This document shows, one piece after another, positions 24,191 through 46,568 of a stretch of 55,583 nucleotides of DNA. Made by a program: the position numbers and the translations under genes. The stretch comes from an uncultured Clostridia bacterium (GTDB lineage: Bacteria > Bacillota > Clostridia > Tissierellales > Sedimentibacteraceae): assembly GCA_937875315.1 (NCBI GenBank), contig CALNCE010000020.1, positions 1 through 55,583 on the forward strand. The letters run 5' to 3'. Below the pieces are notes generated by a model. That model saw nothing but the letters and a program-made list of their open reading frames with translations, did not search any database and had not been told where the DNA came from. Positions within the stretch are counted from its first letter, which is position 1, and each line of letters starts with the position of its first letter.

Positions 24191-24220
24191 AAAAAAAGAG
24201 CGGACGTCCGCTCTTTTTTT
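24191..24220. terminator. Intrinsic terminator after NSS copy 2
   Basis: Perfect palindrome AAAAAAAGAGCGGACGTCCGCTCTTTTTTT. Confidence 0.85.
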
Positions 24221-24238
24221 ATCTTGAATTTACATATC

Positions 24239-25717
24239 CTAGAAAATTCCCAATCCGAAAAAGTCATCCAACTGACCGAGTAATACGAAAAACATAACAG
24301 CAGGAACAATGAATTTAAAGCAAATATCCCAGAAGTTGTATGCCTTCATCTTATAACCGGGAGTTTGTTCAACCTCATCCTTAATGAGAACAGTCTTGAG
24401 TTTCCATCCTATTAATAGTGACATCAACATTGCGCCAAGAGGCATGAAAACACCTTCAGAAATCATATCATAGAAATCAAGCCAGCAGTCAAATGCAACC
24501 CTTACCTCGCTCATGCCGAATACAGTTGCCGGGATATCAATCATTGCCCCTCCTGCTACACCTGAGCCAAGTCCATCCATTGCTACAGGGAATCCCAATA
24601 AGAAAATTACGGTTCCTACAATAAGAGTGATTTTTTTACGGTCAGGCTCTAAACCCTTCTCAACTCGTTTGTCAATAAAGTATGCCGTACAAACCTCCAA
24701 TAGTGAAATAGATGATGTAACAGCAGCAATAAACACTAAGAAATAGAAAAGAGCGCCGAAGAAATTACCCATCATTCCACCCATGCCAACACTGAAAACT
24801 CTATGCAGGGTAACGAATAAAAGTCCGGGGCCTGCCCCGAAAGAAACACCTTCAACTCCTTGATACATGAATGCACCAACTGCCGGTAATACTGCTAAAG
24901 CTGATAATAATGCAAATGATGTGTCTGCTATAGGAATAATCATAGCATTTTTTTCTAAGTTTTCGTTTTTACTGAGGTAGGAGCCGTAAGTAATCATGCA
25001 GCCCATACCGAGAGATAATGAAAAGAACATCTGTCCGGCGGCAGTTTTAAGCACCCTCATAAAACCTATTTCCTTTAAACTCACCCAGTCCGGTTTAAAC
25101 ATAAATTCAAGACCCACAAAAGCACCTTCCAAAGTAACGCTTCTGATAACTACTATTATCATCATTACAAATAATGCAGGCATCGCAATAGTTGTAAACT
25201 TTTCTATACCGCCTGCAATACCGCCCATTACTATGATAACTGTAGCACCCATAAAGAGTGCATGATACAAAATACTCATGGGAGCACTGGTTATGAAGCT
25301 TCCAAAGAATGCACCGCTGTCCATTCCGCCAAAGCCTGCACCGGCGCTAAAAATTTCCATTAAAAATCCAAAACAATACCGTAGAGTAAATCCGCCTAAT
25401 ACACTGTAAAATGCTAAAATAAGAAAACCTGAAAGCCAGCCCAACCAACCTATCCATGTGTATTTTTCGCTGATTTTCTTATAAGTTCCAACAACTCCCA
25501 TGCCGTATTTACGACCTAACGCTAATTCTCCAAGCATAACAGAAAAACCAACAAAAGATACCAAAGCTAAATATATTATTAGAAAAATAAATCCGCCGTT
25601 TGCTCCCATCTTATATGGGAATCCCCAAATATTACCCAAGCCTATTGCTGAGCCAATAGCTGCCATTAAGAAACCAAAATTTGTACCAAATTGCCCTCTT
25701 TTATTATCTTGTTCCAT
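24239..25717 (-). CDS. Sodium-dependent transporter, NSS/SNF family (copy 2)
   Basis: Same length (492 aa from ATG 25717) and long identical blocks with copy 1. Confidence 0.93.
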   Translation of the reverse strand: MEQDNKRGQFGTNFGFLMAAIGSAIGLGNIWGFPYKMGANGGFIFLIIYLALVSFVGFSVMLGELALGRKYGMGVVGTYKKISEKYTWIGWLGWLSGFLILAFYSVLGGFTLRYCFGFLMEIFSAGAGFGGMDSGAFFGSFITSAPMSILYHALFMGATVIIVMGGIAGGIEKFTTIAMPALFVMMIIVVIRSVTLEGAFVGLEFMFKPDWVSLKEIGFMRVLKTAAGQMFFSLSLGMGCMITYGSYLSKNENLEKNAMIIPIADTSFALLSALAVLPAVGAFMYQGVEGVSFGAGPGLLFVTLHRVFSVGMGGMMGNFFGALFYFLVFIAAVTSSISLLEVCTAYFIDKRVEKGLEPDRKKITLIVGTVIFLLGFPVAMDGLGSGVAGGAMIDIPATVFGMSEVRVAFDCWLDFYDMISEGVFMPLGAMLMSLLIGWKLKTVLIKDEVEQTPGYKMKAYNFWDICFKFIVPAVMFFVLLGQLDDFFGLGIF

Positions 25718-25904
25718 TCTGCACCTTCCCTTCTTATTATCAATACGATTGCAATACAACGAAAATTATATCCTTTTTAACTATATTTCATTAACCTCCT
25801 ATCTTTGTTAGTTTTTTTCAATTATGTCCTTATTAAATAAGCTATAACGTATGCATTTAATAATTATATGTATATAAATGAATGCATAAAATATGATTAA
25901 GTCT

Positions 25905-31875: not shown

Positions 31876-32520
31876 TTATTCCTTTTTTTCAAGGGCATTC
31901 TTCACTGCATTCATCAAAGCTTTACTTGTTATGGTTGCACCTGAAACAGCATCCACATCAGTTGTTTGATTTTCTATTATGGATGAAATTATTGTACCTA
32001 TTGCATTTTCACTGACACCCTTTGTTTCATTGTGAGACACAACTTCGATTTGAATAATTTTATCGTCCTTCAGAGTTACTGATACTATGATAGGACCTCC
32101 GATACCTCTATCTTCACCTGTATATTCTATTGAATGAGAATTTATTTCTTCCGACTCCTCAGAAGGGGGTGTTTGTTCCGGTTCTGTTGTTATATATTCT
32201 TCCGATTGTGAAATTATTTCTTCCGGTTCATCTGCAGGTGAAAGTGTCTGTTCTTTTTCGGATTCTTCAGTAGTTTCGGACTCTTGTTCTACAGGTTTTT
32301 CCGGCTTTTGTTCTACATGCTGTTGCACTTCAGTCTGTTGCTCTTCTGAAATATTCTCTTTATTATTATCTTCTGTCTCTTGGTTTATATTTTCACTACT
32401 TAAAATAGTGTTATTTTCAATTCCTTTTGAAGCTTCAGTATCCGTTTTTATTCTCTCATCCGAAGAACAACCAACAATACTAAGCATCAAAATTAATAAT
32501 ACCATCAATAGATTTTTCAT
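31876..32520 (-). CDS. Lipoprotein with E/Q/P-rich linker and C-terminal FMN-binding (flavinylation) domain
   Basis: Lipobox IVGC; GIGGPIIVSVTL...HNETKG...DVDAVSGATITS. Confidence 0.85.
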   Translation of the reverse strand: MKNLLMVLLILMLSIVGCSSDERIKTDTEASKGIENNTILSSENINQETEDNNKENISEEQQTEVQQHVEQKPEKPVEQESETTEESEKEQTLSPADEPEEIISQSEEYITTEPEQTPPSEESEEINSHSIEYTGEDRGIGGPIIVSVTLKDDKIIQIEVVSHNETKGVSENAIGTIISSIIENQTTDVDAVSGATITSKALMNAVKNALEKKE

Positions 32521-32530
32521 AGTCGCCTCG

Positions 32531-33148
32531 TCAAAGCAGTTTTCTTCTTTTTTCAATAGCTTTTAACTCTTTTTGTTCTTCTTCAATAATTTTTTCTTTT
32601 TCTATATTTAGTTTTTTAGATAATATTTCAATAAATATATTCCTGAAATTATTTTTCCATTCTGTCATTGAAGGGCTGTAAGTCAGCCCAAAGGCCAATA
32701 ATTTTCCTGCATCCTCTTGTATATTACCGAGCCGTACCTGTTCAAAATCAAGTCCGTAAATTTCATTACCGGCAATAATAAAGTTTTTAAAATTTACATC
32801 ATATAAAATATATTGCTCTTTATAGAACCCAAAAACAGCAGAGTAAAAACTCTTAAGATAGCTGCATAGAGTATTAACCATTCTTAAGTCCAAAGTATTA
32901 CTTTTTTCTTGTTCCTCATACCAATCAAGAAAATTAAACTCTCCCAAATCTTCAAGATATAAATGGTTTTCTTCTTCTTTAATTATTGAAGGAACCTTAA
33001 CTCCTGCTTTTTTTAAAATATTCAGTATTTCTTTTTCCATTATGTAATTTTCATGATTTTCAAATTTTTTTATAATATATGTGCAGTCATCTTCTACAAT
33101 TCGAAATACTTTATTTCTTTTGCTTATTAATTCTATCTCTTTATGCAT
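32531..33148 (-). CDS. Small-molecule kinase, APH/choline-kinase-like fold
   Basis: IIKKF, GVKVPSII, catalytic loop LYDVNFKNFI, DFE; no signal peptide. Confidence 0.72.
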   Translation of the reverse strand: MHKEIELISKRNKVFRIVEDDCTYIIKKFENHENYIMEKEILNILKKAGVKVPSIIKEEENHLYLEDLGEFNFLDWYEEQEKSNTLDLRMVNTLCSYLKSFYSAVFGFYKEQYILYDVNFKNFIIAGNEIYGLDFEQVRLGNIQEDAGKLLAFGLTYSPSMTEWKNNFRNIFIEILSKKLNIEKEKIIEEEQKELKAIEKRRKLL

Positions 33149-33879
33149 ACTTCAATGTCCCCGTTTTCTGTGTAGCCGCTTAATTCCTTTGCTATTCCTT
33201 CAATGGCATTTTTCAAAATACTCTGAACAAACGGAACCATTGTAATTTCCTGTCCGTTAATTTTAAGCATTACACTCTGCTCAGTCAATATACAGTCCCT
33301 CCTTTCCGCCTCGCCTTTCAAAATCTTTGAGCTTAATTCAGCGCATGTGTATCCGCATTTTTGGCAGCATTCATCCTTCATGTCCGGAGGTCTGTCAAAT
33401 ACTTTCTCCTCAATAATATTCACCATTTTTTCAATTTCAGTTATTGAGTTTATAACGGGAATACCCTCATATTCCGACATGCTATTGGATATTTTCCCTG
33501 ATATTGCAAAGGTTGTTTCATCCATCCTGTCTTGAATTCCTTCCACATCGTGGGCTGTTACTATTTTAGGTATACATGTATCCCTCACTCCTTCTAAAAT
33601 AACAAAATCATGGTTGTAAAAACTAAGAATTTCATTCATGCTCAGCTGTTTTTGGAATAATACGTCTGTTTCATAGGCTCCTCTTGCAGTAACCAGCTGA
33701 GAGCCTGCCATTTTGTGTCTGTGAGTGTTGGTTCCTTCCACGTCCATTTTAAATTCCTCAAAATGAATTTCTTTTACGCTGCCTACAGTATAATTACGTT
33801 TTCGAAGCTCCTTTATTATATTTTCTATGGTAGTAGTTTTACCGGACTTTGTTATTCCGATTACTGAAAAGACCTTCAT
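33133..33879 (-). CDS. mobB: MobB-family GTPase with C-terminal Fe-S domain
   Basis: SVIGITKSGKTTTIE, VGSVKEIH, DVEGTNTHRHKMAG, ILEG; CQKCGYTC...C cluster motif. Confidence 0.88.
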   Translation of the reverse strand: MKVFSVIGITKSGKTTTIENIIKELRKRNYTVGSVKEIHFEEFKMDVEGTNTHRHKMAGSQLVTARGAYETDVLFQKQLSMNEILSFYNHDFVILEGVRDTCIPKIVTAHDVEGIQDRMDETTFAISGKISNSMSEYEGIPVINSITEIEKMVNIIEEKVFDRPPDMKDECCQKCGYTCAELSSKILKGEAERRDCILTEQSVMLKINGQEITMVPFVQSILKNAIEGIAKELSGYTENGDIEVCIKR

Positions 33880-33920
33880 AATATACGGTTTCTCCTTTCT
33901 TTGTCTATTGAAAAATTAAG

Positions 33921-34047
33921 ATGCCCTAACCCTATTTTTCAGAGTCCTGATTTGGGGACATTCCTCCTACCAACAAAGACTTTCCCTAAATAAGGAGGTG
34001 TGTCCCCATACCCCTAATAAATAGCGGTAGGTCATTCGCAACGAATT
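33921..34047. repeat. Composite palindrome: REP-like unit (33954-34013) inside the arms of a second palindrome family
   Basis: GGGGACATTCCTCCT...AGGAGGTGTGTCCCC core matches 4449-4559; flanks match 55425-55490. Confidence 0.72.
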
Positions 34048-34808
34048 CCCAATTTATGTGACGCAAGGAACAAATAAATTGGTGAATGAGACTGCGCTAA
34101 TAACAATAATGCTGCTGCAATACTTAGGACTATTATAATATAATCAACTGCCCGCATTTTCAAAACCATGCAGCTTGTTCTTTCGGGGTATGCTCTGAAA
34201 CCTCTCATTTCCATTGCTGCAGCCAATTCCTTTGCCTTTGTTACGGAATTAATGGTAATGGGAGTAAGTATGTATTTGTAAACTTGAATTTTCTTATTTA
34301 ATTTAACTTTCTTTAGCTCAATTCCCCTAAGCTGTATTGCAGTTACCATATCCGTCATTTCCTCTTTGAATATGGGTAAAAATCTTATTGCAACGGAAAC
34401 CATAAAGGCTATTTCATAAGGACAATGCCATTGAATAAGCCCTTGTATTATTTCCCTGCTTGACGATGTTGTTATTATTGCAGCAGAAATTATAATTATT
34501 ACCATTCGCAAAATAAATTCAAGTGCTCTTAAAATTCCGTAATCAGTTAAAATTGTAAGGCTGCCTATTTTCAAAACAGGAGCTCCCGCATTAGTTAACA
34601 AACTCTGAATTAACGCTATTAAAACTATTATTTTAAGAAGCCTTTTTAGCTTTACAAGAGTCGATATTAAATTAACATTATTTATAAGCGCAATTACTAT
34701 TGCTGCAAATAGTATTAATGATAAAACAGATATATCATTGTAAATTAATCCGAGGGTTGATAAAATTAAAACTTGAACTATTTTTGTTCGAGGGTCTATA
34801 TCATTCAT
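34032..34808 (-). CDS. ECF transporter transmembrane component T
   Basis: IDPRTKI, AIRFLP, AIQLRG and AMEMRGF coupling motifs. Confidence 0.93.
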   Translation of the reverse strand: MNDIDPRTKIVQVLILSTLGLIYNDISVLSLILFAAIVIALINNVNLISTLVKLKRLLKIIVLIALIQSLLTNAGAPVLKIGSLTILTDYGILRALEFILRMVIIIISAAIITTSSSREIIQGLIQWHCPYEIAFMVSVAIRFLPIFKEEMTDMVTAIQLRGIELKKVKLNKKIQVYKYILTPITINSVTKAKELAAAMEMRGFRAYPERTSCMVLKMRAVDYIIIVLSIAAALLLLAQSHSPIYLFLASHKLGIRCE

Positions 34809-35457
34809 AATTTACCCCCTCAAGAGCTAATACTTTGTCTTTATGCCTTTCAATAAAATCCTTGTTATGGCTTATAATAAGCATACCTATATTTATCTTT
34901 TTTAATTTGTCCAAAACTTCCGATAATGCATCTATTCTTTCTTTATCAAGGGATGCAGTAGGCTCGTCCAAAATAAGATATTTAGGACCAATCATCAATA
35001 CGGAAGCAATGGCTAAACGCCTTTTTTCTCCATAACTTAAAAAAAGGGGATATGAGTTTTTAACTTTTCCAAGGTCAAAAATTTCAAGCATTTCTTCAGC
35101 TTTATCCATGGTTTCTTCCTTATTGTATCCCTTAAATAATAAAGGGAATGTCAATTCTTCCACTACAGATGTGCTGAAGAGCTGCCTTTCAGGATACTGA
35201 AAAACATAGCCTACCATTTCGCCGATACTGCCAAGAGACAGACTTGCTGTACTTTGACCGAATACTTTTACTTCACCGAAAGATGGTTTCAATATTCCCA
35301 TGATAAGCTTGGTTAAGGTTGTTTTCCCGGAGCCGTTTTTTCCTGTCAGTACAGTTGTTTCTCCATTTTTTAAATTAAGAGAAAAATTGTCAAATACCTT
35401 TCTTCCCTTAGGGTATTTATAAGAAATATTGTTGAGCTCAATTGTGTTATTCATCAT
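34801..35457 (-). CDS. ECF transporter ATPase (A')
   Basis: GKNGSGKTT, VFQYPERQLF, LSYGEKRR, LDEPTASLD. Confidence 0.92.
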   Translation of the reverse strand: MMNNTIELNNISYKYPKGRKVFDNFSLNLKNGETTVLTGKNGSGKTTLTKLIMGILKPSFGEVKVFGQSTASLSLGSIGEMVGYVFQYPERQLFSTSVVEELTFPLLFKGYNKEETMDKAEEMLEIFDLGKVKNSYPLFLSYGEKRRLAIASVLMIGPKYLILDEPTASLDKERIDALSEVLDKLKKINIGMLIISHNKDFIERHKDKVLALEGVNYE

Positions 35458-36111
35458 TCACCTAAGATTAAAAATCCTGTCTGCAATTTTTATATTATCA
35501 TAATCATGGTCAACCATGATTATTGTTTTTCCTTCTTCTTTTAACTTTAATAAAACATCTTTAATTATTTCTTTTCCTTCATCATCAATCCATGACATTA
35601 TTTCATCACATATAAGAATTGAAGGAGCAAGCATTAAAACAGATGCAATTGCAACAAGCTGCTGCTGTCCTCCCGATAAATTATTAGGATTGTCGTATCT
35701 GTATTTTTCCATATTCATTGTTTTTAATATTTTATCAATACGATTGCATATTTCTTCTTTGTCAACACACAGGTTTTCAGGACCAAATGCAAGCTCATCT
35801 TCAATAGTAGGTGAAAAAAGCTGTGTCGAAGGATTTTGAAATATAATTCCTATCTTTGAAACTGTTTCCGAAATACTTAACCTATTTATATTTTCGCCGA
35901 AAATTAATACTTCGCCGGATAATTCACCTTTGTATAACCTTGGTATCAGTCCGCATATTAAGTTACACAAGGTGCTTTTACCGCAGCCGCTTTGTCCGAT
36001 TATTGCAACCGTTTCACCTTTTCTTACGCTAAAATTAACATCCTTTAAAACATATCCTTCCGAGTTGTTGTATTTAAAACTTAAATTTTTAACTTCAACT
36101 GCATTCATCAT
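35458..36111 (-). CDS. ECF transporter ATPase (A)
   Basis: GQSGCGKST, IFQNPSTQLF, AFGPEN, LSGGQQQ, CDE. Confidence 0.92.
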   Translation of the reverse strand: MMNAVEVKNLSFKYNNSEGYVLKDVNFSVRKGETVAIIGQSGCGKSTLCNLICGLIPRLYKGELSGEVLIFGENINRLSISETVSKIGIIFQNPSTQLFSPTIEDELAFGPENLCVDKEEICNRIDKILKTMNMEKYRYDNPNNLSGGQQQLVAIASVLMLAPSILICDEIMSWIDDEGKEIIKDVLLKLKEEGKTIIMVDHDYDNIKIADRIFNLR

Positions 36112-36620
36112 TTAACCTCAATTTCAGTAATCCACTTGCATCTTCTGTTGCTGAAAGTATCCGAAACCACAATGGATTCATAGGGACCTCTTCCTCCTGA
36201 GTCCCTACCGCCTAAGTATTTCCCTTCTTCCATAAAAGCAATATAAACATTTTTATCTATTGAGACCTCTTCTGAAGAATAAGCAACAGAATAACCATCC
36301 GCTGCTTTGATAATAATTATTTTGTTTTGAAAATCAATATTATTCTTATTAAGCAGCTCTTTCAGCTGAACTCCGGTATAGATATGTGTGGCGGGCTCAG
36401 TCGTTGATGTGTCAAGAACTGCTTCAAAATCCCCACTGTAAAGAATTATATCTTCTATGGTTATAACTCTTTTATTTTCATCATCTGCCAAAACAATTTG
36501 TGCATTTGCCAATATTTCTTTTTGTTTTTCAATATATTCTTTGTTTAAATTTAATGAAACAAATAATGTAATTGTCAATATTATTATTAATATAACAATT
36601 ATTGCAGCACTTCTTTTCAT
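36108..36620 (-). CDS. Membrane-anchored single sulfite-oxidase-like (molybdopterin-binding fold) domain protein
   Basis: N-terminal TM; YTGVQLKELL, AADGYSV, IAFMEEG, GPYESIV, KWITEIEV pattern. Confidence 0.72.
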   Translation of the reverse strand: MKRSAAIIVILIIILTITLFVSLNLNKEYIEKQKEILANAQIVLADDENKRVITIEDIILYSGDFEAVLDTSTTEPATHIYTGVQLKELLNKNNIDFQNKIIIIKAADGYSVAYSSEEVSIDKNVYIAFMEEGKYLGGRDSGGRGPYESIVVSDTFSNRRCKWITEIEVK

Positions 36621-37615
36621 GGCTCTTTAATGAAATATGGAACAATAATATCTGATTGAACGCATATTCCGTGTCCTCCTCCTTCATCTGTTTCATGCAT
36701 ACCATGGTCAGGCGCAATTATTATGGCTCCATCCCATACCTTGCCTAAAGTTTCAATATATTGGTCAATGGCTTTTATGTATTCCATTGTTTCATCAGAA
36801 TATGGTCCGAAGCTGTGGCCTCTGTCATCAATTCCGTGAAAATGAATGAAAACCAAATCATAATTTTCATTTACTGCTTTTAAAGCACTTTCATATACTT
36901 CATCATCTGTTTCACCGTTTTTGTTATTATCAATATGGAGTTCAGGCTCAATTTCTGTATTTAATACTTTTATGTCCCCTTCAAGCAAAATAGAATTTTT
37001 ATTGTTCTCGAGACAATAGGCGAATATGCTTTTCACACGCATCTCACGTACACTTCTGTCATGCACTCCGTTAACGTTTGGAGTTTCTCCGGTAATTATT
37101 GCTGCAAAGCCTGCATTTGTAACAGGAGTATAGACGCTTAAGGCAGGATATTTAAAATATTTGCTTAAAAATGGAATGCTGCCTTCTTTAACAGCCATTT
37201 TAAACTGATTGTATGAAAAACCATCTAATAAAACTGCCATAACCTTTTCTTCGTTTCCCAAATATTCTATCATATGAAAATAAGCATTGGTGATGCTTTG
37301 ATAATCATTTGTTAAGTAAATACCTTCAATATTTTCAAATTTAGTCTGGCCGGCAGTCGCATATACCGTGCTGTCACTGCCTATATAATTATCGGAAGAA
37401 AATAAAACTGTGAGCCCTGTGTCACAGATAATGGCTGCACGAGAATAATTCTCCTGTGACAATTCATGTATATAAACATTTCCCTCAGGGATAAAGTCAT
37501 CAATTAGATTTTCATCTTTATTGAATACACTAATACCCTTTAATTCTGTTTCATTTACCCTTGCACTGCAGCTTGTTAAGAATATTAAAATTAATAATAA
37601 TAATATTTTTTTCAT
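36617..37615 (-). CDS. Lipoprotein, alkaline-phosphatase superfamily (NPP/PafA-like)
   Basis: Lipobox LTSC; LLDGF, PVTNAGFAAIITG (Thr nucleophile), HFHGIDDRGH, APDHG, GGGHG. Confidence 0.82.
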   Translation of the reverse strand: MKKILLLLILIFLTSCSARVNETELKGISVFNKDENLIDDFIPEGNVYIHELSQENYSRAAIICDTGLTVLFSSDNYIGSDSTVYATAGQTKFENIEGIYLTNDYQSITNAYFHMIEYLGNEEKVMAVLLDGFSYNQFKMAVKEGSIPFLSKYFKYPALSVYTPVTNAGFAAIITGETPNVNGVHDRSVREMRVKSIFAYCLENNKNSILLEGDIKVLNTEIEPELHIDNNKNGETDDEVYESALKAVNENYDLVFIHFHGIDDRGHSFGPYSDETMEYIKAIDQYIETLGKVWDGAIIIAPDHGMHETDEGGGHGICVQSDIIVPYFIKEP

Positions 37616-37658
37616 ACCGGCATTCCTTTCAGTGAGCATATTATAATCAGCAGCATCT

Positions 37659-38210
37659 TTAATTCTCTAATATATTCATTTTTTCCAAACTTATGTTGAT
37701 TGTATATGCTATGAGCCCGCCTATTGTACCTGACAGGGCTGCGGCAGACAATATTAAGATAACCGTAACAAAGGGAAGCCTGAAAAATAATAAATTGGAA
37801 ATAAGTGTGCCAGTAACATTTGCGGCTAAGCAGCCAAACACATAATGAAGAATATTGTACTTTTTATTCTTAGAAAATAAGAATACAATATCAACAACTA
37901 TTCCCGGCAGAGTGTAGGAAACAATGCTCATGATACCGTGAGTTCCCATAGTTCCCGCTGCAATCACCAGTATTCCTTGTACAATGCCTATTAATGCGGC
38001 TGTGCCTGTTTTTTTTACAATTCCTGCACCCAATACTATCCAAAACATATAGAAACCGCCGGCAATGGCTCCCCCCGGAATAAACAAGGGGCCCGTTATA
38101 ACATGAACCAATGGTACCACAATTGGTTTGGTTGCTATTCCAAGGGCTGATACCACTGCTATTATAATTAAGTTATAGACTGAAAATTTATTAAGAAATT
38201 TTTTTACCAT
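37659..38210 (-). CDS. ECF transporter substrate-binding S component
   Basis: 183 aa, ~6 TM, AVVSAL in TM1, KKTGTAALIG loop; co-encoded with EcfA/A'/T. Confidence 0.82.
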   Translation of the reverse strand: MVKKFLNKFSVYNLIIIAVVSALGIATKPIVVPLVHVITGPLFIPGGAIAGGFYMFWIVLGAGIVKKTGTAALIGIVQGILVIAAGTMGTHGIMSIVSYTLPGIVVDIVFLFSKNKKYNILHYVFGCLAANVTGTLISNLLFFRLPFVTVILILSAAALSGTIGGLIAYTINISLEKMNILEN

Positions 38211-38218
38211 GAAAACCT

Positions 38219-38689
38219 CTACTCAAGTATTATTTCATCCACATGCTTAATCCAGCGCTGGCTGAAGGGGTCTCTTCTTATAATCAGCTGGAAGGGACCG
38301 TTTCCTCCCTGTTTCTTTGACTTAAGCAATTCGTTGTCCCTTTCAAATGTCAAATATACATTTGAAGGCTCTTTGATTTCTTCAACGCTTAAAATTATTC
38401 TGTAGCCGTCAGATGCATTAAAGGTAATCTTGCTATAGTTTGAAATATCTATATTCAACGTTTCAAAAAGTTTTATAAGTTCAATGCCTTTGTATTCCGT
38501 TTCAACGGGCTTTGAACCGCTGCTTCTAACGACAGCAGGAAATTTAACTGCTTCTTCATGAGTGTAAATAATTTTCGTATCAACCGTTTCATATTTACCG
38601 TCAATATTTACGGTTAATGAGGGCAGCTCTTCAGAGCAGCCTGTTAAAATAAATATTAAAATTATAAAAATAAGAATTTTCTTTAACAT
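38219..38689 (-). CDS. Lipoprotein with single sulfite-oxidase-like domain
   Basis: Lipobox LTGC; YKGIELIKLF, ASDGY, GPFQLII, RWIKHVDEIIL. Confidence 0.75.
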   Translation of the reverse strand: MLKKILIFIILIFILTGCSEELPSLTVNIDGKYETVDTKIIYTHEEAVKFPAVVRSSGSKPVETEYKGIELIKLFETLNIDISNYSKITFNASDGYRIILSVEEIKEPSNVYLTFERDNELLKSKKQGGNGPFQLIIRRDPFSQRWIKHVDEIILE

Positions 38690-38703
38690 ATTTTCCCCTC
38701 TGC

Positions 38704-39858
38704 TCAATTGTCCAATGAGCTGTTCACTGCATCCTTTACGGAGTTTAAGAAACCCCTGCAGGTTGAAGTAGCCCCGCTTATGGAATCCACGTTTAAATTT
38801 TGAGTTTCAGTGATTTCATAGGATAATTCTCTAAATGCTTCTTCGAAATAGCCTGTAGTTTCACCGTGACTCAGAACTTTTATATTTGTTATTTTCTTAT
38901 TGTTTATAATAACTTCCGTATTCATTATACCGCCAAAGCCCATCCCAAAGCCTTCATAGGTTCCATCTTTTATGCTGTCAATTGAAGTTATTGCCTGCAC
39001 TGAAGTATTTGAACCTGATAATGGGAAAAATATATATAAACCTGCAATTATACAAATACATATTAATATATAGGTTGAATTCTTAAGTTTTCTGTTTCCA
39101 ATAGTCAGCGAAAAACCATCATTATTTTTGATGCATTTATTTATACATTTAAGACAGTTAATGCATTCGGGTGATATTTCTTCCGCCTCGGTTTGCTGCT
39201 CTTCTACAGGACAGTCTTTTAAACAATAAGAGCAGTTACAGCTCCCTTTATTAATTTTAAATGGTCCCACTGCATATAGCAAGCTTTGAAATGCTCCCAA
39301 AGGACAAAAATATCTGCAGAATATTCTCCTTCCAATCAGTGATACAAAGATAATCAATAATAAAACTATTGTTCCGGTTTGAAATTTTGCTCCTATGAAT
39401 ATATTTAAGTATGCAAGCCAGGGAGAAAACGGAGAAACTATGTTTCCCATGCCAAGTATACTTAAAATCATTATTGCAATTAAAACAATATATTTAAGAA
39501 GTTCAGGATTATGAGGAAATTTTACTTCCTTCAGCCCGATTTTACTTCCTGTATATTTGAAAAAGTCCTGCATTGCTCCAATAGGACAAATATAACCGCA
39601 AAAAGCTCTTCCCATCAAAAATGCGGTGACAGCTATTCCTGTTGTTAATGCAATGCTTCTTGAAGCTCCACGCCATCTGTAAGATAGATCCATAAAGAAA
39701 GACTTAAGAGCACTCCATCCGCCGTAAGGATTCATATCTCCTATGGAGAGAATTCTAAACCCAATTATTTCATTTATATACATGCCGTAGCTCAAACATG
39801 ACAATACCACTATAATGGTTGCAGTGATTTGTATTACGCTTCTTATATTCAACTTCAT
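38704..39858 (-). CDS. NapH/NosR-like membrane polyferredoxin with C-terminal FMN-binding domain
   Basis: FCGYICPIG and FCRYFCPLG, CSYCLKDCP, CINCLKCINKC; VDSISGATST. Confidence 0.87.
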   Translation of the reverse strand: MKLNIRSVIQITATIIVVLSCLSYGMYINEIIGFRILSIGDMNPYGGWSALKSFFMDLSYRWRGASRSIALTTGIAVTAFLMGRAFCGYICPIGAMQDFFKYTGSKIGLKEVKFPHNPELLKYIVLIAIMILSILGMGNIVSPFSPWLAYLNIFIGAKFQTGTIVLLLIIFVSLIGRRIFCRYFCPLGAFQSLLYAVGPFKINKGSCNCSYCLKDCPVEEQQTEAEEISPECINCLKCINKCIKNNDGFSLTIGNRKLKNSTYILICICIIAGLYIFFPLSGSNTSVQAITSIDSIKDGTYEGFGMGFGGIMNTEVIINNKKITNIKVLSHGETTGYFEEAFRELSYEITETQNLNVDSISGATSTCRGFLNSVKDAVNSSLDN

Positions 39859-41423
39859 TTCTTTTCAATCCTTGATAGTTCCGTCATTATTTTCTTATCC
39901 TTATGTAGACTGACTTGTCCATCTTCATAAATCAAATAACATTTAAGCATATCATCCATAGAAAGCTCAATCTTTTCATCATTTTTATTTACTGCAGTAA
40001 ATTTGTCATCTTCATCCCATCTCATGCCTGCAACCAAAAGCACATCTTCCAAAAGCATTCCTTCACTTCCCCCAATTGATTTTGTTCTTACAACTTCAAT
40101 CATTTTCTCGGGGAAAATAACGGCATCCTTTGTGGTTGAAAAATGAGTCATATGTTTTACATTCATTCCAAGCTTAAAATTAGGAGCAATATTCATCGGA
40201 GCATTATCTCCTTCAACCTTAATAAAATATCTTTGCCTTACCAATGATATTGTTTCATGTTTTGCAAGACCGTCTGTGGCAGACATGGTAAAGAATCCTT
40301 TTTCATCTACTTCATCAAATTTTCTTAATATTTTCCCTACTTCTATGGAGCTATCCTTAGAGCCGTAGTATTCATAATAATAGGGCTCAATATCTTCGGT
40401 CAAAGGGTTGAACATGTGCACTTTATCAATATCCTTGGGGGATATTTCCTTATATAAATCAATATTTGAAACCATTTTTACCCAGTAAGGACCAAGCTCC
40501 AAAGGAACAGAAATTCTTACCGGTTTTTCTTCGTCTTTGATATCCTTTCCGTTTATCTGCCAGGTAAGTATTATATCATTTACAGCTAATTTTTCCTTGT
40601 CTATCATGGTGTAGTATCCGTCCCTCCCGGTCACACCTATACCTGCATACCGGCTTAAGTCAATACCTTCATTTTCCAAAACATCACGAAGAGAAGGTCC
40701 TTTTACACGCATATCCGTTTCTGTTCCCGTTGTATTAATTAAAGTAACATCCATGTCTAACTGTTCATATTTTTTAATTTCATCAGTATCTATTCGAACA
40801 GAGCCGCCATCCCAATTTATTGCAAAGCTGTTAATATCCTTCTGCCACATTTCCTGAGGCACCACATCAGGAACTTTTGCCATTTGAATATTATAATTCC
40901 AATACTGATAATGTCCAATGGCTGCATTTACGGCATTTACCACAGCCTGAGAGCTTATGGTGGCGCCTGTCAGCTGGATGATATCTTCGGGGTTTTCCTT
41001 ATCAAGAACTACCAAATTTAAATATTTATTAATAGGTAAATTTGTAAACCTGTCCAAAAAGTAATCATATTCCATATGCTCCGCATAGTCCGGTGATTCC
41101 TCGTGGTTTAAAATTTTAATTCCAATTAACAACTCATCATATTGGTCTAAAGCAGCCAAAACTTCTATAGGACCGTTATATCCGACACAGCTTACAACAT
41201 ATGCACATGTTTTTCCATCAATTTCATATGCTCTTTTTACTGCGGGAAAATACAATGAACCATATAAGTCATCAGAAAAGCCTTTTATCAGTGTTATTTT
41301 TTTCGCAGTTGGATAAAATAACTTTACTGCTTCCTTTTCCTCAGAAGAATCATTTAGCGTAAAAAACAAAGTGCCTGCAACAACCAAAATAATTATGATA
41401 ATAAGTATGTATCTGTTTTTCAT
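39855..41423 (-). CDS. Membrane-anchored RnfG-like FMN-binding domain fused to sulfite-oxidase-like domain(s)
   Basis: GYNGPIEV, NHEESPDY, QLTGATISS; then KGPSLRDVLE, GRDGY, PVRISVP, YWVKMVSNI. Confidence 0.8.
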   Translation of the reverse strand: MKNRYILIIIIILVVAGTLFFTLNDSSEEKEAVKLFYPTAKKITLIKGFSDDLYGSLYFPAVKRAYEIDGKTCAYVVSCVGYNGPIEVLAALDQYDELLIGIKILNHEESPDYAEHMEYDYFLDRFTNLPINKYLNLVVLDKENPEDIIQLTGATISSQAVVNAVNAAIGHYQYWNYNIQMAKVPDVVPQEMWQKDINSFAINWDGGSVRIDTDEIKKYEQLDMDVTLINTTGTETDMRVKGPSLRDVLENEGIDLSRYAGIGVTGRDGYYTMIDKEKLAVNDIILTWQINGKDIKDEEKPVRISVPLELGPYWVKMVSNIDLYKEISPKDIDKVHMFNPLTEDIEPYYYEYYGSKDSSIEVGKILRKFDEVDEKGFFTMSATDGLAKHETISLVRQRYFIKVEGDNAPMNIAPNFKLGMNVKHMTHFSTTKDAVIFPEKMIEVVRTKSIGGSEGMLLEDVLLVAGMRWDEDDKFTAVNKNDEKIELSMDDMLKCYLIYEDGQVSLHKDKKIMTELSRIEKK

Positions 41424-41431
41424 GTTATCAC

Positions 41432-42217
41432 CTATTCAATGATAATTACATCTATATTTGATACCCACTGGGGTTTATTTATATCTCCGGGCTCTTTTTG
41501 TCCTACTGCAAGTTTATAGGGAGCACCTTCATTTGTGGAATATTCTTCGCCGTTCTCTTCCCATGCAATAATCATGGGATATTTATTGTCAGGATTTGTT
41601 TCATCCATATATTCCATTTTAACCTGCTCAATTGTAAATTCCATGATGTATCCGTCCTGAGCTGTAATGGATATCTTTGAAGCTTCAGACTTTATCAGGG
41701 CTTTGCTTTCCAATAAGTCCCACAGCTTAACACCCTTAAAATGCGTATAGCCTGTTGTGCCGAAATTGTTCAGCCAATAAAAGTCAGCTTCAAAAATAAT
41801 ATCACTCATTCCCTTTAACTCATCTAAAGATAAAGAAAGCTCATTATCTACAAGACCTTTAACTTTTAAAACATTTTCTGCAATTACCGGCTGCTCATCC
41901 ACCGGCGGGGCTTCTTCTGTCGTCTTAGCAGTTACCGGCAATTCTTTAGAAGAATCAACCTTTGCATCTCCTTCCGGTTGTTCTGCTTCAGGTGTTTCTT
42001 CGGGAATTTCTTCAATTTCGCTTTCAATAGGTTCTTCAGGTTTGCCTGCTTCTTCCGGTTCATCCGGTGCTTCAGTTTCCCCTTTGATTATTTCATTATT
42101 GTTTTCTTCAATTGCAGCATTACTATCTCCATTTGCTGCCGGAGCATCAGTTTTTTCTGCAGAGCACCCTGCCAATATAAATATTACCGCAAATACTATA
42201 ATTAATAGTTTTTTCAT
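41432..42217 (-). CDS. Lipoprotein with long E/P-rich linker and sulfite-oxidase-like domain
   Basis: Lipobox LAGC; LKVKGLVDNELSLSLDEL, FKGVKLWDLL, AQDGY, IAWEENGE, QWVSNI. Confidence 0.8.
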   Translation of the reverse strand: MKKLLIIVFAVIFILAGCSAEKTDAPAANGDSNAAIEENNNEIIKGETEAPDEPEEAGKPEEPIESEIEEIPEETPEAEQPEGDAKVDSSKELPVTAKTTEEAPPVDEQPVIAENVLKVKGLVDNELSLSLDELKGMSDIIFEADFYWLNNFGTTGYTHFKGVKLWDLLESKALIKSEASKISITAQDGYIMEFTIEQVKMEYMDETNPDNKYPMIIAWEENGEEYSTNEGAPYKLAVGQKEPGDINKPQWVSNIDVIIIE

Positions 42218-42257
42218 ATAATACACCTCTTAAGAGGGGAGGAAACCTCCCCCTTAA

Positions 42258-45098
42258 TTATTTATTTAAATATCTTAAAAGCATTACCGTCGCTTCTGCT
42301 CTTGTTGTATTTTGTGTGCCGCCAAAAATATTGCCGGGCAATCCTTTGATAATCTCAGCTTTAACTGTCTTTGCAACATTTACCTTTGCCCACTGAGACA
42401 CCTCATCATTGAAAACAGACAATACTTCATCAGCGTTTGTTATTTCTTCTTCCAAAAGTGAGCCTATTACAGTTCCTATTTCCTGCCTTGTAATGGGAGA
42501 ATTTGGCTTGAATGTTCCATCTTCATAGCCTTTTACATATCCTTTTTCTGCTGCTGCTAAAACATCCTTTACAAACCAGTCTGTAGGTTTCACATCAGCA
42601 AAGTTTGATACTGCATCTTCATCAGCAATATTTAATACTCTGATTAACAATGATACAAATTCTGCTCTGCTGATATTATTATTTGGTCTGAATAAACCGT
42701 TGCTGCCTTTTGCATAACCCATTGCCGCCATTTCCAGAATACTGTCCTTTGCCCAGTGGTTATCAATATCAGCAAAAAGAATATCCTTATCGGTTTTTAC
42801 ATCCTTCATTTCAGGTGCTTCATAATCTCCGGTGCCTAAAACTATGCAGTCAACCCATTTAACCCACATGGATTTGCTTTCTTCGATAATGAGTCTCAAA
42901 GGACCATACGCATTGTTATTTATATATCCTAAGCTTGATTCGTTTGGCACTAAGGGATAGCCTTCTGCTGCATATGCTAAAATTATTTTCTTATTCTGAC
43001 CCTGTGAATTTAAAACTCCATTTACGACCTGCTCATTGCTTCTTAATATTTGATTGTAATTTTGACCGGCAAATACCCTTATGTTTGGAGCATCTACATC
43101 ATCTTTAAGTCCAACAACATCATTGATCAAATTCCAAAGAACAATACCCTGCATTTCAAGAATGCCGTCACCTGTGTAAGTATCTCTCTTTGCATACTCT
43201 GTCATTGCTTCAATCTGCCTTAATGTAAATGTCATAGGTTCTTTAATTTGAGAGCCTGTTACACGTAATACCGGCATGTCCAGGTATCCTTTATATACAC
43301 CTTGATTGTGTCCCCAGGATTCATCAATTTCTTGTTCTGTACTTGTACCTTCACCGGTTCCTTGAGTATCTGTTGCAATTGACTCCCCTTCACCGATAAT
43401 TATTTCTTTTGCAAACTGCACCTGGTTTGAGCCGTTTGTATCGTTATAACCTGTTTTGCCGAATATTATTCTAAGGGGTCCTCCGTCATTTCCAAGACCC
43501 GGATTATAACCTTGGTCTGCAGGCCGGGCTACATAAGGATATCCGTTGTATCCATAGGCAACCAATACCGGAAGCTCTGTATAAACAGGATTAACATATT
43601 CTCCCGGGAAAGCTCCGTCACCTTTGTCCAATGCACTTTTCTCATAATAACCGTACAAAGAATCATCCTTTATTTGCTTTATGGTCATTGGTGCAAAATT
43701 ATAATTATCTGCAGCAATGAAACGCACGCTGATATTTTCATCTATATTTGGGTCCAAGCCTGCCTCAAGAAGCAAGTCCCACAAAGGAACACCTTTGTAT
43801 GAATTGTAATACCAAAAATATTCACTGTTTGAAAGGCTGTATTCCTTGACTGTATGAAGGTCTGTCATTGCTTCAATATCTTTGACGGTGTACCTTGTTT
43901 CTTTGCCTAAAGCGTCTCCGTGAATTATCAATTCATAATCAGTATATTTTGGATTATTGTATGGAGCATAGCTGTGCTCGTAAATATTTTCAGCATCCTT
44001 TTCTTCAATATAAATATATGCTACATTGGTAAATTCCTTGGCTGTGTTTTTATCTTGTTCATATACTAGCTTAAAACAACCGTCGTCATTATTCTTTTCC
44101 TTTATATAACCTTCTTCTGTGTCCAAGTATACCAAGGGAACTTCATTAATGCCGTAGGCAACGACATAATTATCTGCTTCGGAAATATTAACCGTAAGAA
44201 TGTTCTGTCTTGATTTATCCTTAAATATGATATTGCCTGCATTATCCTTTGCTTTCACATAATTATCGATTAAATATTTTACATTTATTCCCTCATATAA
44301 ATTTTCAACAACTTTACCGTCAATCTTTTCATAATATTTATTTAATAACTGTCCACCGGTATCCTCTTCTACCTGCCTCAATGAAACAGCTCTGTATCCT
44401 TCAACTCCGGGACCTTCAATTGTAAATGTGGCTCCGGTTATTGCATCCACATTGTAAGGTTCACCATCATGACTGATGTGTTTGTAAGGTGATGAGGGAG
44501 TAACCTTTATTAACTCATCCCCCACTGTGAGCTTCACTACTTCCTTGCCCCATTTAGACATATTCATATCATCAATGTCTGTTTGTCCAAATACAAGTTT
44601 TGGAAAGTCTTTATCTATATCAGCTTCTGTTATAGGAATATCTGTCCATGTAACCGGGGGAGCAAAAATATTCTTTGGAAAATCAGCCATTACCGTTATG
44701 TATTTTGCTACCATAGGCATAACTTCTTCCTTGCTCCCTAAGGTAAAGTCACTGAAATAGTAAGCATTTTTAAGCTCGCTGAGGGTTTTGGTAAATTCAA
44801 AGCCGTCAGAGCAAGTAAATTTAACTGTATAATCTTTGTCTGTTTTTAAACCGTCTCCAATAAGGTCGAATAAATCATATCCTTTTGCTTTTACGATTTT
44901 ATGAAATCCAAGGCTGTTGTTTGTGGAATATGTTCTCTCAATTAAGCTGTAATTTGACCAGTCCCCTGATGAAATTATTACTTCTTCTTCCATTCCCGTG
45001 CCTGTAATTACAAGTTCAGGCTGAGCTGCTGAAACAGGCATTGCATTCATAATAATCAGGGATATAATCAACAGCCATATTGTAACTTTTCTTGCCAT
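42258..45098 (-). CDS. SLH-anchored surface protein with four tandem sulfite-oxidase-like domains
   Basis: Sec signal; four repeats (KGYDLFDL, YEGINVKYL, YKGVPLWDLL, MQGIVLWNL; GPLR/PKL cores); three C-terminal SLH motifs (FRPNNNISRAE, FKPNSPITRQE, TTRAEA). Confidence 0.82.
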   Translation of the reverse strand: MARKVTIWLLIISLIIMNAMPVSAAQPELVITGTGMEEEVIISSGDWSNYSLIERTYSTNNSLGFHKIVKAKGYDLFDLIGDGLKTDKDYTVKFTCSDGFEFTKTLSELKNAYYFSDFTLGSKEEVMPMVAKYITVMADFPKNIFAPPVTWTDIPITEADIDKDFPKLVFGQTDIDDMNMSKWGKEVVKLTVGDELIKVTPSSPYKHISHDGEPYNVDAITGATFTIEGPGVEGYRAVSLRQVEEDTGGQLLNKYYEKIDGKVVENLYEGINVKYLIDNYVKAKDNAGNIIFKDKSRQNILTVNISEADNYVVAYGINEVPLVYLDTEEGYIKEKNNDDGCFKLVYEQDKNTAKEFTNVAYIYIEEKDAENIYEHSYAPYNNPKYTDYELIIHGDALGKETRYTVKDIEAMTDLHTVKEYSLSNSEYFWYYNSYKGVPLWDLLLEAGLDPNIDENISVRFIAADNYNFAPMTIKQIKDDSLYGYYEKSALDKGDGAFPGEYVNPVYTELPVLVAYGYNGYPYVARPADQGYNPGLGNDGGPLRIIFGKTGYNDTNGSNQVQFAKEIIIGEGESIATDTQGTGEGTSTEQEIDESWGHNQGVYKGYLDMPVLRVTGSQIKEPMTFTLRQIEAMTEYAKRDTYTGDGILEMQGIVLWNLINDVVGLKDDVDAPNIRVFAGQNYNQILRSNEQVVNGVLNSQGQNKKIILAYAAEGYPLVPNESSLGYINNNAYGPLRLIIEESKSMWVKWVDCIVLGTGDYEAPEMKDVKTDKDILFADIDNHWAKDSILEMAAMGYAKGSNGLFRPNNNISRAEFVSLLIRVLNIADEDAVSNFADVKPTDWFVKDVLAAAEKGYVKGYEDGTFKPNSPITRQEIGTVIGSLLEEEITNADEVLSVFNDEVSQWAKVNVAKTVKAEIIKGLPGNIFGGTQNTTRAEATVMLLRYLNK

Positions 45099-45150
45099 TT
45101 GTACCTCCTGATAATAAATGAGCAAATATCGCTCATTTATTTTCTTTATA

Positions 45151-46311
45151 TTATTCCGTTACTATTTCCGGTTCCGGAAACAGCGTGTTAAACACAACCA
45201 ATGCTGCTTCCGCACGATTAACATTCTTCACAGGTTCAAAGTTCTCAGCTGCTACTCCCACGAATACATCCTGTGCTTCAAGCCATGCTACAGCATTTCC
45301 TGCCCAGTCTGCAACATCTTCTTTGTCTGTGTAATTTGATTTTTCCATTACAAATTTGTCGACTCTTGCTTGTTCAACAAGTCCTTTTTTAACTGCTGCC
45401 CTTGCCGCTACAACTGCCATCTCTTGTCTTGTTATTACTTTTTCCGGTGCAAATGTGCCGTCTGTATATCCTACGAACAGCCCTGAATCAACAGCAGCTT
45501 GTACATATGGCGCTGACCATCTGTCAACAGTTATATCGCTGAATGCTCCTTCATAATCTTTAAGTTCATATTCCAATGCCACAACAATTATTTTGCAAAA
45601 TTGTTCTCTTGTAAACTCATTTCCGGGAGCATAAAGTCCGCCGCCCACACCATCTATTATTCCTCTTTTTGCAAGGTCATAAATTGCTGTTTCTGCAAAC
45701 TTGTATTCTTCTGTTATATCTGTAAAAGTAACTGTTTCTGTTACTTCTTCTTCAGCAGGTTCGGTATCCGGTACTTCTTCTTCCGGTGTTTCTTCAACAA
45801 CTTCTGCTTCACCTACAGTAATTTTATTAACCAATTTAAAAACGGTGCCAAATTCGCCTTCTGCTTTTACATTTCTGTAAACAGTTATTTCTTCAATTAC
45901 AGCTTCATCATTGTCTACAGCCTCACCGTCTACCTCATAAGCTAATACAAATTTTAGTTCATCATTTAAAACATCCTGAAGCGGTTGAGGGTCGATATCA
46001 TAACCATCTGCTGCGAAAAACTCAACGCTTCCATCTTCAGCAGTCACTCCTGCTTTTTCCTTCAATAAATAAGCTAAGCTTACGCCTTTAACCTGGACTG
46101 TTTTTTCTCCGCCTTTTGAATTATAAACATAATCCTGTGCTATTTGAGCTTCTTCAGGCATTCCCTTCAGCTCATCAAGAGTAAGCTTGAGTTCTGTTGC
46201 AGCCAAAGTGCCTCCGATTTCAACTGCGTAATTTTCTTCTGCAAAAACCAATGATTGCGATAGAATTATCACAATAACCAATACCAATGAAATTACTTTA
46301 AATTTTTTCAT
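45151..46311 (-). CDS. SLH-anchored surface protein with one sulfite-oxidase-like domain
   Basis: Sec signal; LTLDELKGM, KGVSLAYLL, AADGY, LAYEVDGE; acidic linker; three SLH motifs. Confidence 0.82.
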   Translation of the reverse strand: MKKFKVISLVLVIVIILSQSLVFAEENYAVEIGGTLAATELKLTLDELKGMPEEAQIAQDYVYNSKGGEKTVQVKGVSLAYLLKEKAGVTAEDGSVEFFAADGYDIDPQPLQDVLNDELKFVLAYEVDGEAVDNDEAVIEEITVYRNVKAEGEFGTVFKLVNKITVGEAEVVEETPEEEVPDTEPAEEEVTETVTFTDITEEYKFAETAIYDLAKRGIIDGVGGGLYAPGNEFTREQFCKIIVVALEYELKDYEGAFSDITVDRWSAPYVQAAVDSGLFVGYTDGTFAPEKVITRQEMAVVAARAAVKKGLVEQARVDKFVMEKSNYTDKEDVADWAGNAVAWLEAQDVFVGVAAENFEPVKNVNRAEAALVVFNTLFPEPEIVTE

Positions 46312-46385
46312 ACTTTCCTCCATAAGTTTTTATTATTTAATTTAGCAGGACTAAATTTAAATCATAAAAGTACGATAAAAAACCC

Positions 46386-46417
46386 AAAAAAACAACACTT
46401 CTGATAGAAATGCTGTT
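46386..46417 (-). terminator. Leader terminator (riboswitch expression platform)
   Basis: AACAGCAUUUCU-AUC-AGAAGUGUUGUU followed by a U-tract, between aptamer and first start codon. Confidence 0.75.
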
Positions 46418-46427
46418 CCCATGCTAT

Positions 46428-46528
46428 GTATATCTCCTTTCCATCAGGAGGCTTGACCGTTTCCAGTCAAACCCTATCGGCATAACGCCATAAATTTACA
46501 TTCTAAGGCTGTTATGCTCGGAGCTATT
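46428..46528 (-). ncRNA. Moco-family riboswitch (Moco RNA motif), P3-less 'Tuco' variant
   Basis: - strand: CUCCGAGCAUAACAGCC...UAUGGCGUUAUGC-CGAU-AGGGUUUGACUGGAAACGGUCAAGCCUCCUGAUGGAAAGGAG; hallmark CUCCGAG, AGGG, GAAA tetraloop, GCCUCC..UGGAAAGGAG; no P3 between P2 and P4. Confidence 0.9.
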
Positions 46529-46539
46529 AAGTTAAATTA

Positions 46540-46568
46540 ATTATATCACAATCTAAAAGTAGTGTAAA
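46540..46568 (-). promoter_or_regulatory. SigA promoter of the riboswitch-controlled operon
   Basis: TTTACA-17 bp-TATAAT with extended TG, just upstream of the aptamer. Confidence 0.75.

Follow-up and report, generated by a model that had tools for sequence, protein, structure and literature searches.

Here, we analysed a 55,583-nucleotide stretch of DNA (contig CALNCE010000020.1, positions 1 to 55,583 of the forward strand; hereafter the window) from an uncultured Clostridia bacterium of the Sedimentibacteraceae, which carries an operon encoding nine sulfite oxidase (SUOX)-fold domains without the molybdenum-ligating cysteine. Sequence, predicted structures and genome comparison suggest, with a probability that we put at about 0.75, that these domains are non-catalytic surface receptors capturing a metal-loaded tungsten (or molybdenum) pterin for import by an energy-coupling factor (ECF) transporter. 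We also consider it likely that anaerobic Bacillota harvest the intact tungsten or molybdenum pterin from their community, through S-layer receptor arrays, a redox-assisted relay, a phosphoesterase and an ECF- or FecCD-type importer. A first-pass annotation of the window, made from the sequence alone, had read the domains as exported empty and as non-catalytic cofactor-capture or carrier domains. Our analysis supports this in outline: the fold is that of SUOX proteins, the cysteine is missing across hundreds of domains, and neither a twin-arginine translocation (Tat) motif in the window's domain proteins nor TatC in their assembly was found. Context that it had not cited points in the same direction, namely a molybdenum/tungsten cofactor (Moco/Wco) riboswitch, an ECF importer, gene fusions of the importer's S component, and co-occurrence with genes for the tungsten-type AOR enzymes in genomes without moaC.

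An operon of SUOX-fold domains

The domains lie within 36108..46311, as first annotated, but the functional unit is wider, at about 31876-46568. Its features are listed below in the direction of reading; A-H are the lettered window genes, B1-B4 the four domains of B, and L and G numbers, used further on, are relatives' loci and genomes.

46540..46568, minus strand: sigma-70-type promoter-like site (TTTACA-17-TATAAT, extended -10 TG), directly before the riboswitch; a consensus match only
46418..46535, minus strand: Moco/Wco riboswitch aptamer RF01055, P3-less (71.7 bits vs a gathering score of 36, E 2e-15; P3 columns gapped)
46388..46420, minus strand: intrinsic-terminator-like hairpin with U-run, the probable expression platform
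45151..46311, minus strand: A, with Sec-type signal, SUOX-fold domain (45799-46239, N68) and three S-layer homology (SLH) repeats
42258..45098, minus strand: B, with Sec-type signal, four SUOX-fold domains and three SLH repeats
41432..42226, minus strand: C, lipoprotein with acidic linker and SUOX-fold domain (41435-41881, N153)
39855..41423, minus strand: D, with transmembrane (TM) anchor, FMN_bind domain (RnfG-like), SUOX-fold domain (40446-40835, N230) and degenerate C-terminal repeats
38704..39858, minus strand: E, NapH-like 4Fe-4S membrane protein with C-terminal FMN_bind domain
38219..38707, minus strand: F, lipoprotein with a single SUOX-fold domain and an R-S-S-G hairpin
37659..38210, minus strand: ECF S component, PF09819 family
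36617..37639, minus strand: G, lipoprotein of the nucleotide pyrophosphatase/phosphodiesterase (NPP) family
36108..36620, minus strand: H, TM-anchored single SUOX-fold domain with invariant C161
35458..36111, minus strand: ECF ATPase A (TIGR04520 best match, below cut-off)
34801..35457, minus strand: ECF ATPase A' (TIGR04521 best match, below cut-off)
34032..34808, minus strand: ECF T component, CbiQ family (PF02361, E 8e-29)
33133..33879, minus strand: cytoplasmic MobB with iron-sulfur (FeS) domain
32531..33148, minus strand: cytoplasmic APH/RIO-like kinase (the Atlas gave only APH/RIO)
31876..32556, minus strand: FMN_bind lipoprotein

A hidden Markov model (HMM) iterated from the domains identified nine full copies in six open reading frames (ORFs), four in B (44511-45026, 43992-44441, 43386-43943 and 42828-43283) and one each in A, C, D, F and H. 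This confirms the number given at first pass, including the four copies in the SLH protein (946/955 aa). No further copy was found in the remaining assembly, which is 95% complete in 398 contigs with 4392 called ORFs of at least 70 aa. The strings that the first-pass annotation had quoted in place of the catalytic cysteine were all located (YNSKGG at A67, STNNSLG at B67, LSNSEY at B431, WLNNFG at C151, INTTGT at D229, VRSSG at F60 and LDTST at H69). Its shared motif recurs across the six ORFs but is incomplete in some copies, the hairpins of B2 and B4 being short or different and the C-terminal Trp being missing from the A and B2 domains.

The PF00174 profile, proposed earlier as a check, recognised A, C (E 2e-10) and D above its cut-off, but H stayed below it (23.8 vs 24), F matched weakly and B gave no match. 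Structure prediction, a check set beforehand, yielded confident AlphaFold models (mean pLDDT 85.8 for B and 95.8 for domain C) that match SUOX-fold structures. In the fold search, domain C matched SoxC (Z 15.4), PruR 7rkb (15.1), SorA (14.6) and YedY/MsrP (11.1), while the best unrelated match reached only Z 6.8; B domain 3 gave Z 13-14.6 and B domain 2 up to 13.8. PDB searches with a single sequence or with the B alignment returned no match, and SUOX proteins and PruR were reached only via the domain profile and the fold searches. D additionally carries a degenerate partial repeat that the first reading had not mentioned (hhalign probability 88); a hidden SUOX-fold domain considered for the N-terminus of G was unsupported (hhalign probability 1).

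Homologues of B reach 2.8 kaa and up to 10 domains per chain. In a tree of sampled rows, each domain position formed its own clade across loci, which fits fixed and different, or specialised, roles; four sampled rows lay outside or split their label group, three of them being divergent L057 or mislabelled L060 copies. The closest named homologues belong to Sedimentibacter and other Tissierellia, and more distant ones to Geosporobacter, Anoxynatronum, Desulfosporosinus, Mogibacterium and others. In many longer B homologues, of the P0041-P0098 type, the SUOX-fold domains are followed by Reg_prop beta-propeller repeats, an arrangement reminiscent of beta-propeller vitamin-capture proteins. In B itself, residues 227-234 (DAITGAT), just before domain 2, look like an ApbE flavinylation site, are retained in 21 of 29 aligned homologues and give a weak PF04205 match; in the model this segment continues into domain 2 as part of its first strand, and so it may not be modified.

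Loss of the metal ligand and comparison with PruR

In E. coli MsrP, our reference, the single cysteine, Cys102, stands 12 residues before an invariant Gly. None of the nine window domains has Cys at this position, in agreement with the first-pass claim: the residue is Asn in A (N68), B1 (N70), B3 (N433), C (N153) and D (N230), Ser62 in F, Thr71 in H, Lys in B2 and Asp in B4. The hairpin keeps the MsrP spacing in five of the nine domains and is one residue longer in F and H. Our main residue statistics were taken from 681 homologous domains at 78 loci, where the position is held by Asn (302), Thr (76), Lys (72), Asp (68) or Ser (63); any Cys within -15 to -9 of the Gly occurs in only 12 of the 681, and Cys is not common at -12. 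A larger collection, of 594 domains in 142 representatives, agrees (Cys within -14 to -10 in three). D-G-Y and W-x-K are majority states among the 681 domains. H has another cysteine, C161 in FSxRxCK, which all 25 aligned orthologues share and which adjoins the conserved Lys of the C-terminal motif.

The absence of a twin-arginine motif held as well, since none of the six ORFs has RR among its first 50 residues. A Tat-like pattern is rare in homologues (1/326, and 1/142 in the wider set), and TatC was not found in the window's own 95%-complete assembly. Judged by eye, the N-termini are of the kinds first described, that is Sec (A, B), lipoprotein (C, F) and TM anchor (D, H).

The domain type is not new. 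PruR from Agrobacterium, Vibrio and Klebsiella (PDB 7kos, 7kom, 7kp2, 7rkb) is described as a solved, Cys-less, Sec-exported SUOX-fold pterin binder (PMC11194511; likewise PMC13259868) and is the precedent for it. Like our domains, PruR combines a degenerate SUOX fold lacking the Mo-ligating Cys with Sec export, and Asp/Asn-x-Tyr at the pterin site is probably common to both; PruR is non-catalytic, as the domains are likely to be, and often mis-annotated as a molybdopterin oxidoreductase. D-G-Y of the domains aligns with N-D-Y of PruR, and the putative counterparts of PruR Asn102, Tyr104 and Trp160 are Asp in 536 of 670 domains, Tyr in 419 of 667 and, with the Trp a presumed equivalent, Trp in 261 of 458. 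In contrast to the proteins studied here, PruR has a Pro-Trp motif, which occurs in 0 of the 681 domains and in 2 of the 594, as well as a truncated hairpin; it binds small non-Moco pterins, signals to DcpA and is found in Proteobacteria. Our domains carry Asn or Ser/Thr in a mostly full-length hairpin, occur in Bacillota as multiple copies anchored by SLH repeats, lipid or a TM helix, and are partnered with an importer under a Moco riboswitch; no DcpA-type regulator lies directly downstream, where ECF and accessory genes stand instead. With SUOX-family molybdoenzymes (MsrP/YedY, SorA, SoxC, sulfite oxidase) they share the core fold, the invariant Gly, G-P-x-R/W-x-K and the MsrP hairpin spacing, but they have no ligand Cys, no Tat motif (MsrP has RR) and no dimerisation domain, and they stand in tandem arrays. 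They thus belong neither with PruR, for want of the Pro-Trp motif and the DcpA partner, nor with the SUOX enzymes, for want of Cys and Tat. Loss of the Cys would suit a carrier that must release its cargo, and the kept hairpin length, together with an Asn/Ser/Thr loop, may leave room for a metal-oxo end that PruR cannot hold.

The importer as the constant partner of the domains

The promoter-like site before the riboswitch is the best in the 15 kb scanned, with 11 of 12 matches to the consensus, and A likely starts at ATG 46311, preceded by GGAGG. Further down, the S, T and two ATPase genes are clustered, which is the gene content of a group I ECF importer; the S component matched no solved S component by sequence. 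The YkoEDC importer takes up a thiamine precursor, and with riboswitch-controlled group I ECF vitamin importers of this type the operon shares dedicated S, A, A' and T components in one operon, a cofactor riboswitch and an S component in PF09819. Unlike them, it has RF01055 instead of a TPP riboswitch and adds pterin-fold capture proteins, a phosphoesterase, a redox module, MobB and a kinase. Judging from the riboswitch and the genome profile described below, the ECF substrate would be the tungsten or molybdenum pterin. In G, residues D139, T174, D271, H275, D311, H312 and H323, aligned to ENPP5, are invariant in 23 of 23 sequences, and the Thr nucleophile and the Asp/His metal ligands of the NPP family are intact.

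Three FMN_bind domains and the NapH-like protein are present in the operon, with ApbE elsewhere in the genome; the position of the last FMN_bind lipoprotein is taken in several relatives by a 628-639-aa FAD-oxidoreductase with FMN_bind. The operon shares the PF12801 membrane protein, the FMN_bind domains and a genomic ApbE with NapH-like flavinylation systems (PMC8238504), the difference being that the module is accessory here and missing from minimal operons. The main text of that paper, as far as available, has no mention of molybdenum, molybdopterin or ECF.

Gene order is kept in most long loci among L016-L061, and RF01055 was found at 18 of the 20 loci of the system that were tested, the window included (misses L066 and L079), with P3 gapped in seven of seven riboswitch alignments viewed. 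Two weaker RF01055 matches in the window's own genome both lie ahead of AOR genes. The P3-less form is the one associated with tungsten metabolism (Regulski et al., PMC2408646), and the same authors pointed to possible exceptions in Syntrophomonas wolfei, where two P3-less RNAs lie ahead of genes taken as putative sulphite oxidases. Published Moco-riboswitch regulons, in the accessible text of PMC3766115, comprise only moa, mob, moeA, mod and tup genes and a miscellaneous class.

The loci of relatives indicate which genes go with the domains. The smallest operon seen (L098) consists of riboswitch-S-H-A-A'-T without the redox module. In L062, L065, L067, L068 and L070, S forms one fusion protein with a TM helix plus SUOX-fold domain, which is the architecture of H, and it is these gene fusions that suggest a direct contact between S and H. 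In L065 and L066, G is missing and a calcineurin-like phosphoesterase stands in its stead. An FecCD-type ABC system replaces the ECF importer in L079, with ExbB-like and DUF2149 genes, and at several loci from Mogibacterium, Anaerovoracaceae, Lentihominibacter and Bacillota a multi-domain protein stands beside a second ABC type. Across these loci, the domains therefore have an importer as their constant partner, and the redox genes are accessory.

Some loci showed further features. In L079 (15902-21674), FecCD permease, ATPase, binding protein, Ig-domain protein, ExbB-like and DUF2149 genes come after a giant multi-domain protein; an AOR gene adjoins, and no riboswitch match was found at the locus. 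A similar order occurs in L084, L088 and L089, and these are monoderm gut anaerobes. Tandem Moco riboswitches precede a B homologue in L078 (6967-7338), and L065 has one riboswitch (8660-8777) before the operon and a second (22740-22858) before another ECF S-component gene (PF12822). Elsewhere in the window, 22344-25759 holds two tandem, highly similar genes, by eye of the sodium:neurotransmitter-symporter type.

Co-occurrence with AOR genes in genomes without moaC

We compared gene content in a family set of 49 genomes, each at least 85% complete, and in an overlapping order set of 201 genomes, of which 200 are at least 95% complete and one is the window's own. In the family set, B is present in 19 genomes, all 19 with at least two AOR genes. 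Among the 16 genomes of this set without moaC, B is carried by all nine that have at least two AORs, and neither by the single-AOR genome (0/1) nor by the AOR-less ones (0/6). In the order set, where a carrier was a genome with at least two domain matches, 17 of 18 AOR-positive, moaC-negative genomes were carriers, spanning four families. The corresponding figures were 21/80 for genomes with both AOR and moaC, 1/59 for those with neither, and 0/44 for those with moaC but no AOR. On inspection, each of the two exceptions turned out to agree with the pattern: the AOR-less carrier (G169) has an FDH-like gene (bis-MGD type; MGD, molybdopterin guanine dinucleotide) behind the operon and three XDH-family genes, and in the non-carrier (G188) mogA and two moeA genes are present, which makes an assembly gap the probable reason for the absence of moaC.

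In 12 of the 17 AOR-positive, moaC-negative carriers, one PF00994 match only was obtained, which proved to be CinA in the two genomes checked (G000, G049), indicating that known metal-insertion proteins are lacking there too. MoeA_N was found in none of the five carriers tested, which argues that the cargo already holds its metal. The least fragmented moaC-less carriers are G049 (9 contigs), G056 (2 contigs) and G135 (1 contig). G049, 97% complete, has four AORs and gave no moaA over the cut-off and no moaC, MoeA, TupA-family or TatC match; G056, 99% complete, also has four AORs, with no moaA over the cut-off and no moaC.

Thirteen genomes of the order set with a single domain match were classed as non-carriers, and four of the 13 were inspected, three of the ten in genus g32 and G053. 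The three g32 genomes have a lone domain gene without riboswitch match, and the match in G053 is a Cys-bearing enzyme. In the g32 loci (L102-L104), a lone TM-anchored SUOX-fold gene stands, by eye, between dUTPase-like and MutS-like genes, the 3.4-kb loci contain neither an importer nor a riboswitch match, and the genomes are mostly without AOR. The G053 protein (L105:286-2136) is a 616-aa lipoprotein with FMN_bind, two CxxCH-type haem motifs and a Cys-bearing SUOX domain; RR is present at its N-terminus without a clear Tat consensus, and it is a candidate self-contained extracellular Mo-reductase.

Evidence against import and alternative explanations

Several observations weigh against receptors for an imported, metal-loaded cofactor. 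moaC is present in many carriers (10 of 19 in the family set, 21 of 38 AOR-positive ones in the order set and 33 of 50 in a wider set), and most moaC-less genomes are fragmented assemblies. The genomes are also related, and since kin are not independent we place no weight on Fisher p-values for the order-set counts. The carrier threshold was set after the data had been seen, and four of the 13 single-match genomes that it classes as non-carriers are positive for both AOR and moaC. Five of the 17 AOR-positive, moaC-negative carriers have extra PF00994 proteins, with a MobA-MoeA fusion in G056. A 345-aa MoeA-like protein without MoeA_N lies in a moa operon (L097), so the absence of MoeA_N by itself is no proof of lost metal insertion, and we dropped it as a sole marker of auxotrophy. 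The window's own genome was likewise dropped as a proven auxotroph, as its moaA was found cut by a contig end in an assembly of 398 contigs. C161 of H, or the Ser or Thr at the Cys position in F and H, could yet serve as a metal ligand. Extracellular oxidoreductase systems typically contain a NapH-like/FMN module (PMC8238504), and the ligand specificity of P3-less RNAs is a correlation drawn in 2008 (PMC2408646).

On the supporting side, the moaA contig of the window's own genome (C130:1-1359) holds a modC-like ATPase, a 26-codon mogA remnant and, directly after it, moaA. G012 has mogA-moeA-moeA at this place, and the two moeA genes are absent from the locus in the window's own genome and also in G002. 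This locus looks like decay of the biosynthesis operon.

Among the alternatives, the one that survives best, although we regard it as unlikely, is that the importer takes up a metal-free precursor (cyclic pyranopterin monophosphate, molybdopterin or another pterin) and that the cell completes the cofactor. PruR-type domains bind small metal-free pterins, MogA- or MoeA-type genes are kept in G056, G147, G214 and G002, and a phosphoesterase with a kinase would suit a cycle of dephosphorylation, import and rephosphorylation of a pterin. However, the same 12 of 17 carriers have no PF00994 match of MogA or MoeA size and G049 has no TupA-family match, which leaves no known route for metal insertion; moreover, five of the nine domains keep the MsrP hairpin length rather than the PruR truncation, and two more have one extra residue.

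We give somewhat less credence to extracellular oxidoreductases with Ser, Thr, Asp or the Cys of H as ligand, which would receive electrons from the NapH-like/FMN chain, the ECF importer being a mere neighbour or an outward supplier of cofactor. Regulski et al. (2008) took similar S. wolfei genes for sulphite oxidases (PMC2408646), and the redox setting would agree, with the NapH-like protein and three FMN_bind domains in the operon, ApbE in the genome, a flavo-oxidoreductase at the end of relatives' operons and the Cys-bearing SUOX lipoprotein with FMN_bind and haem motifs in L105. A catalytic ligand should not vary as the Cys column does (N, T, K, D, S), and chains of up to 10 copies and the minimal operon without redox module likewise speak against enzymes. 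Catalysis would also leave unexplained both the enrichment in moaC-less genomes and expression downstream of a type of riboswitch for which repression in the presence of the cofactor is reported.

High-affinity uptake of tungstate or molybdate, with the domains or a bound pterin as metal chelators, seems improbable. Metal alone cannot supply AORs where moaC is missing, the presumed pterin-site residues are conserved, and phosphoesterase and kinase have no role in oxyanion uptake; these points outweigh the facts that Asn/Ser/Thr loops can bind oxyanions, that modABC and tupABC belong to known Moco-riboswitch regulons and that G049 has no TupA-family match. PruR-like pterin sensors signalling to a membrane regulator are very improbable, since, for all that PruR and the SUOX enzymes match the domains equally well in structure, the window's operon has no DcpA-like or sensor-kinase gene, the PW motif is absent and the partners are importers.

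A proposed route for cofactor capture

If the domains capture a metal-loaded pterin for import, low cofactor would first allow read-through of the terminator. SLH-anchored A and B would then catch and shield the labile cofactor shed by other cells. The pterin would sit at the Tyr/Trp/Lys site, and Asn, Ser or Thr of the hairpin would hydrogen-bond the metal-oxo group without ligation; binding would thereby stay reversible. The membrane-bound C, D and F might pass the cofactor on to H, with the NPP-family lipoprotein G trimming nucleotide or phosphate, and H would deliver it to the S component for import by ECF AA'T. The accessory NapH-like/FMN module (E, D) may keep the cargo reduced or aid its release. 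In the cytoplasm, MobB-FeS and the kinase would finish the cofactor or hand it over to AOR-family and other Mo/W enzymes.

The nearest biological parallel concerns an animal. Moco has been described as too unstable to pass between cells, and C. elegans is the only organism named with dietary Moco uptake, for which protein-bound Moco is stable and transferable (PMC7849362). The operon would share with it the use of ready-made Moco from other organisms and stabilisation by protein binding, but that system is eukaryotic, its transport pathway is called unknown (PMC7849362), and the two have no known component in common. We found no published description of a bacterial Moco/Wco import system, in a search that left subscription literature mostly uncovered; the available portions of PMC11477304 and PMC13119186 held nothing relevant to the system. 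The architecture is a variation on a riboswitch-controlled ECF importer joined to a PruR-like binder, with a predicted cargo and pathway that were not found in the literature searched.

Prokaryotes that have molybdoproteins yet lack biosynthesis were left without an explanation in a survey of about 5,900 genomes (PMC6147048). The operon offers one testable answer to this orphan-molybdoprotein puzzle, to that of Moco instability and transfer, and to that of the S. wolfei riboswitches, with its genes named, its cargo predicted and candidates for natural auxotrophs at hand. If the proposal is true, annotations that count such proteins as sulfite oxidases would be corrected, and the small Moco/Wco carrier domains could possibly be useful for stabilising the cofactor. 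Moco/Wco would be a cross-fed vitamin with true cofactor auxotrophs, genomes with orphan molybdoproteins would be explained, and the cofactor would be revealed as an unrecognised growth factor of gut and anaerobic-digester anaerobes.

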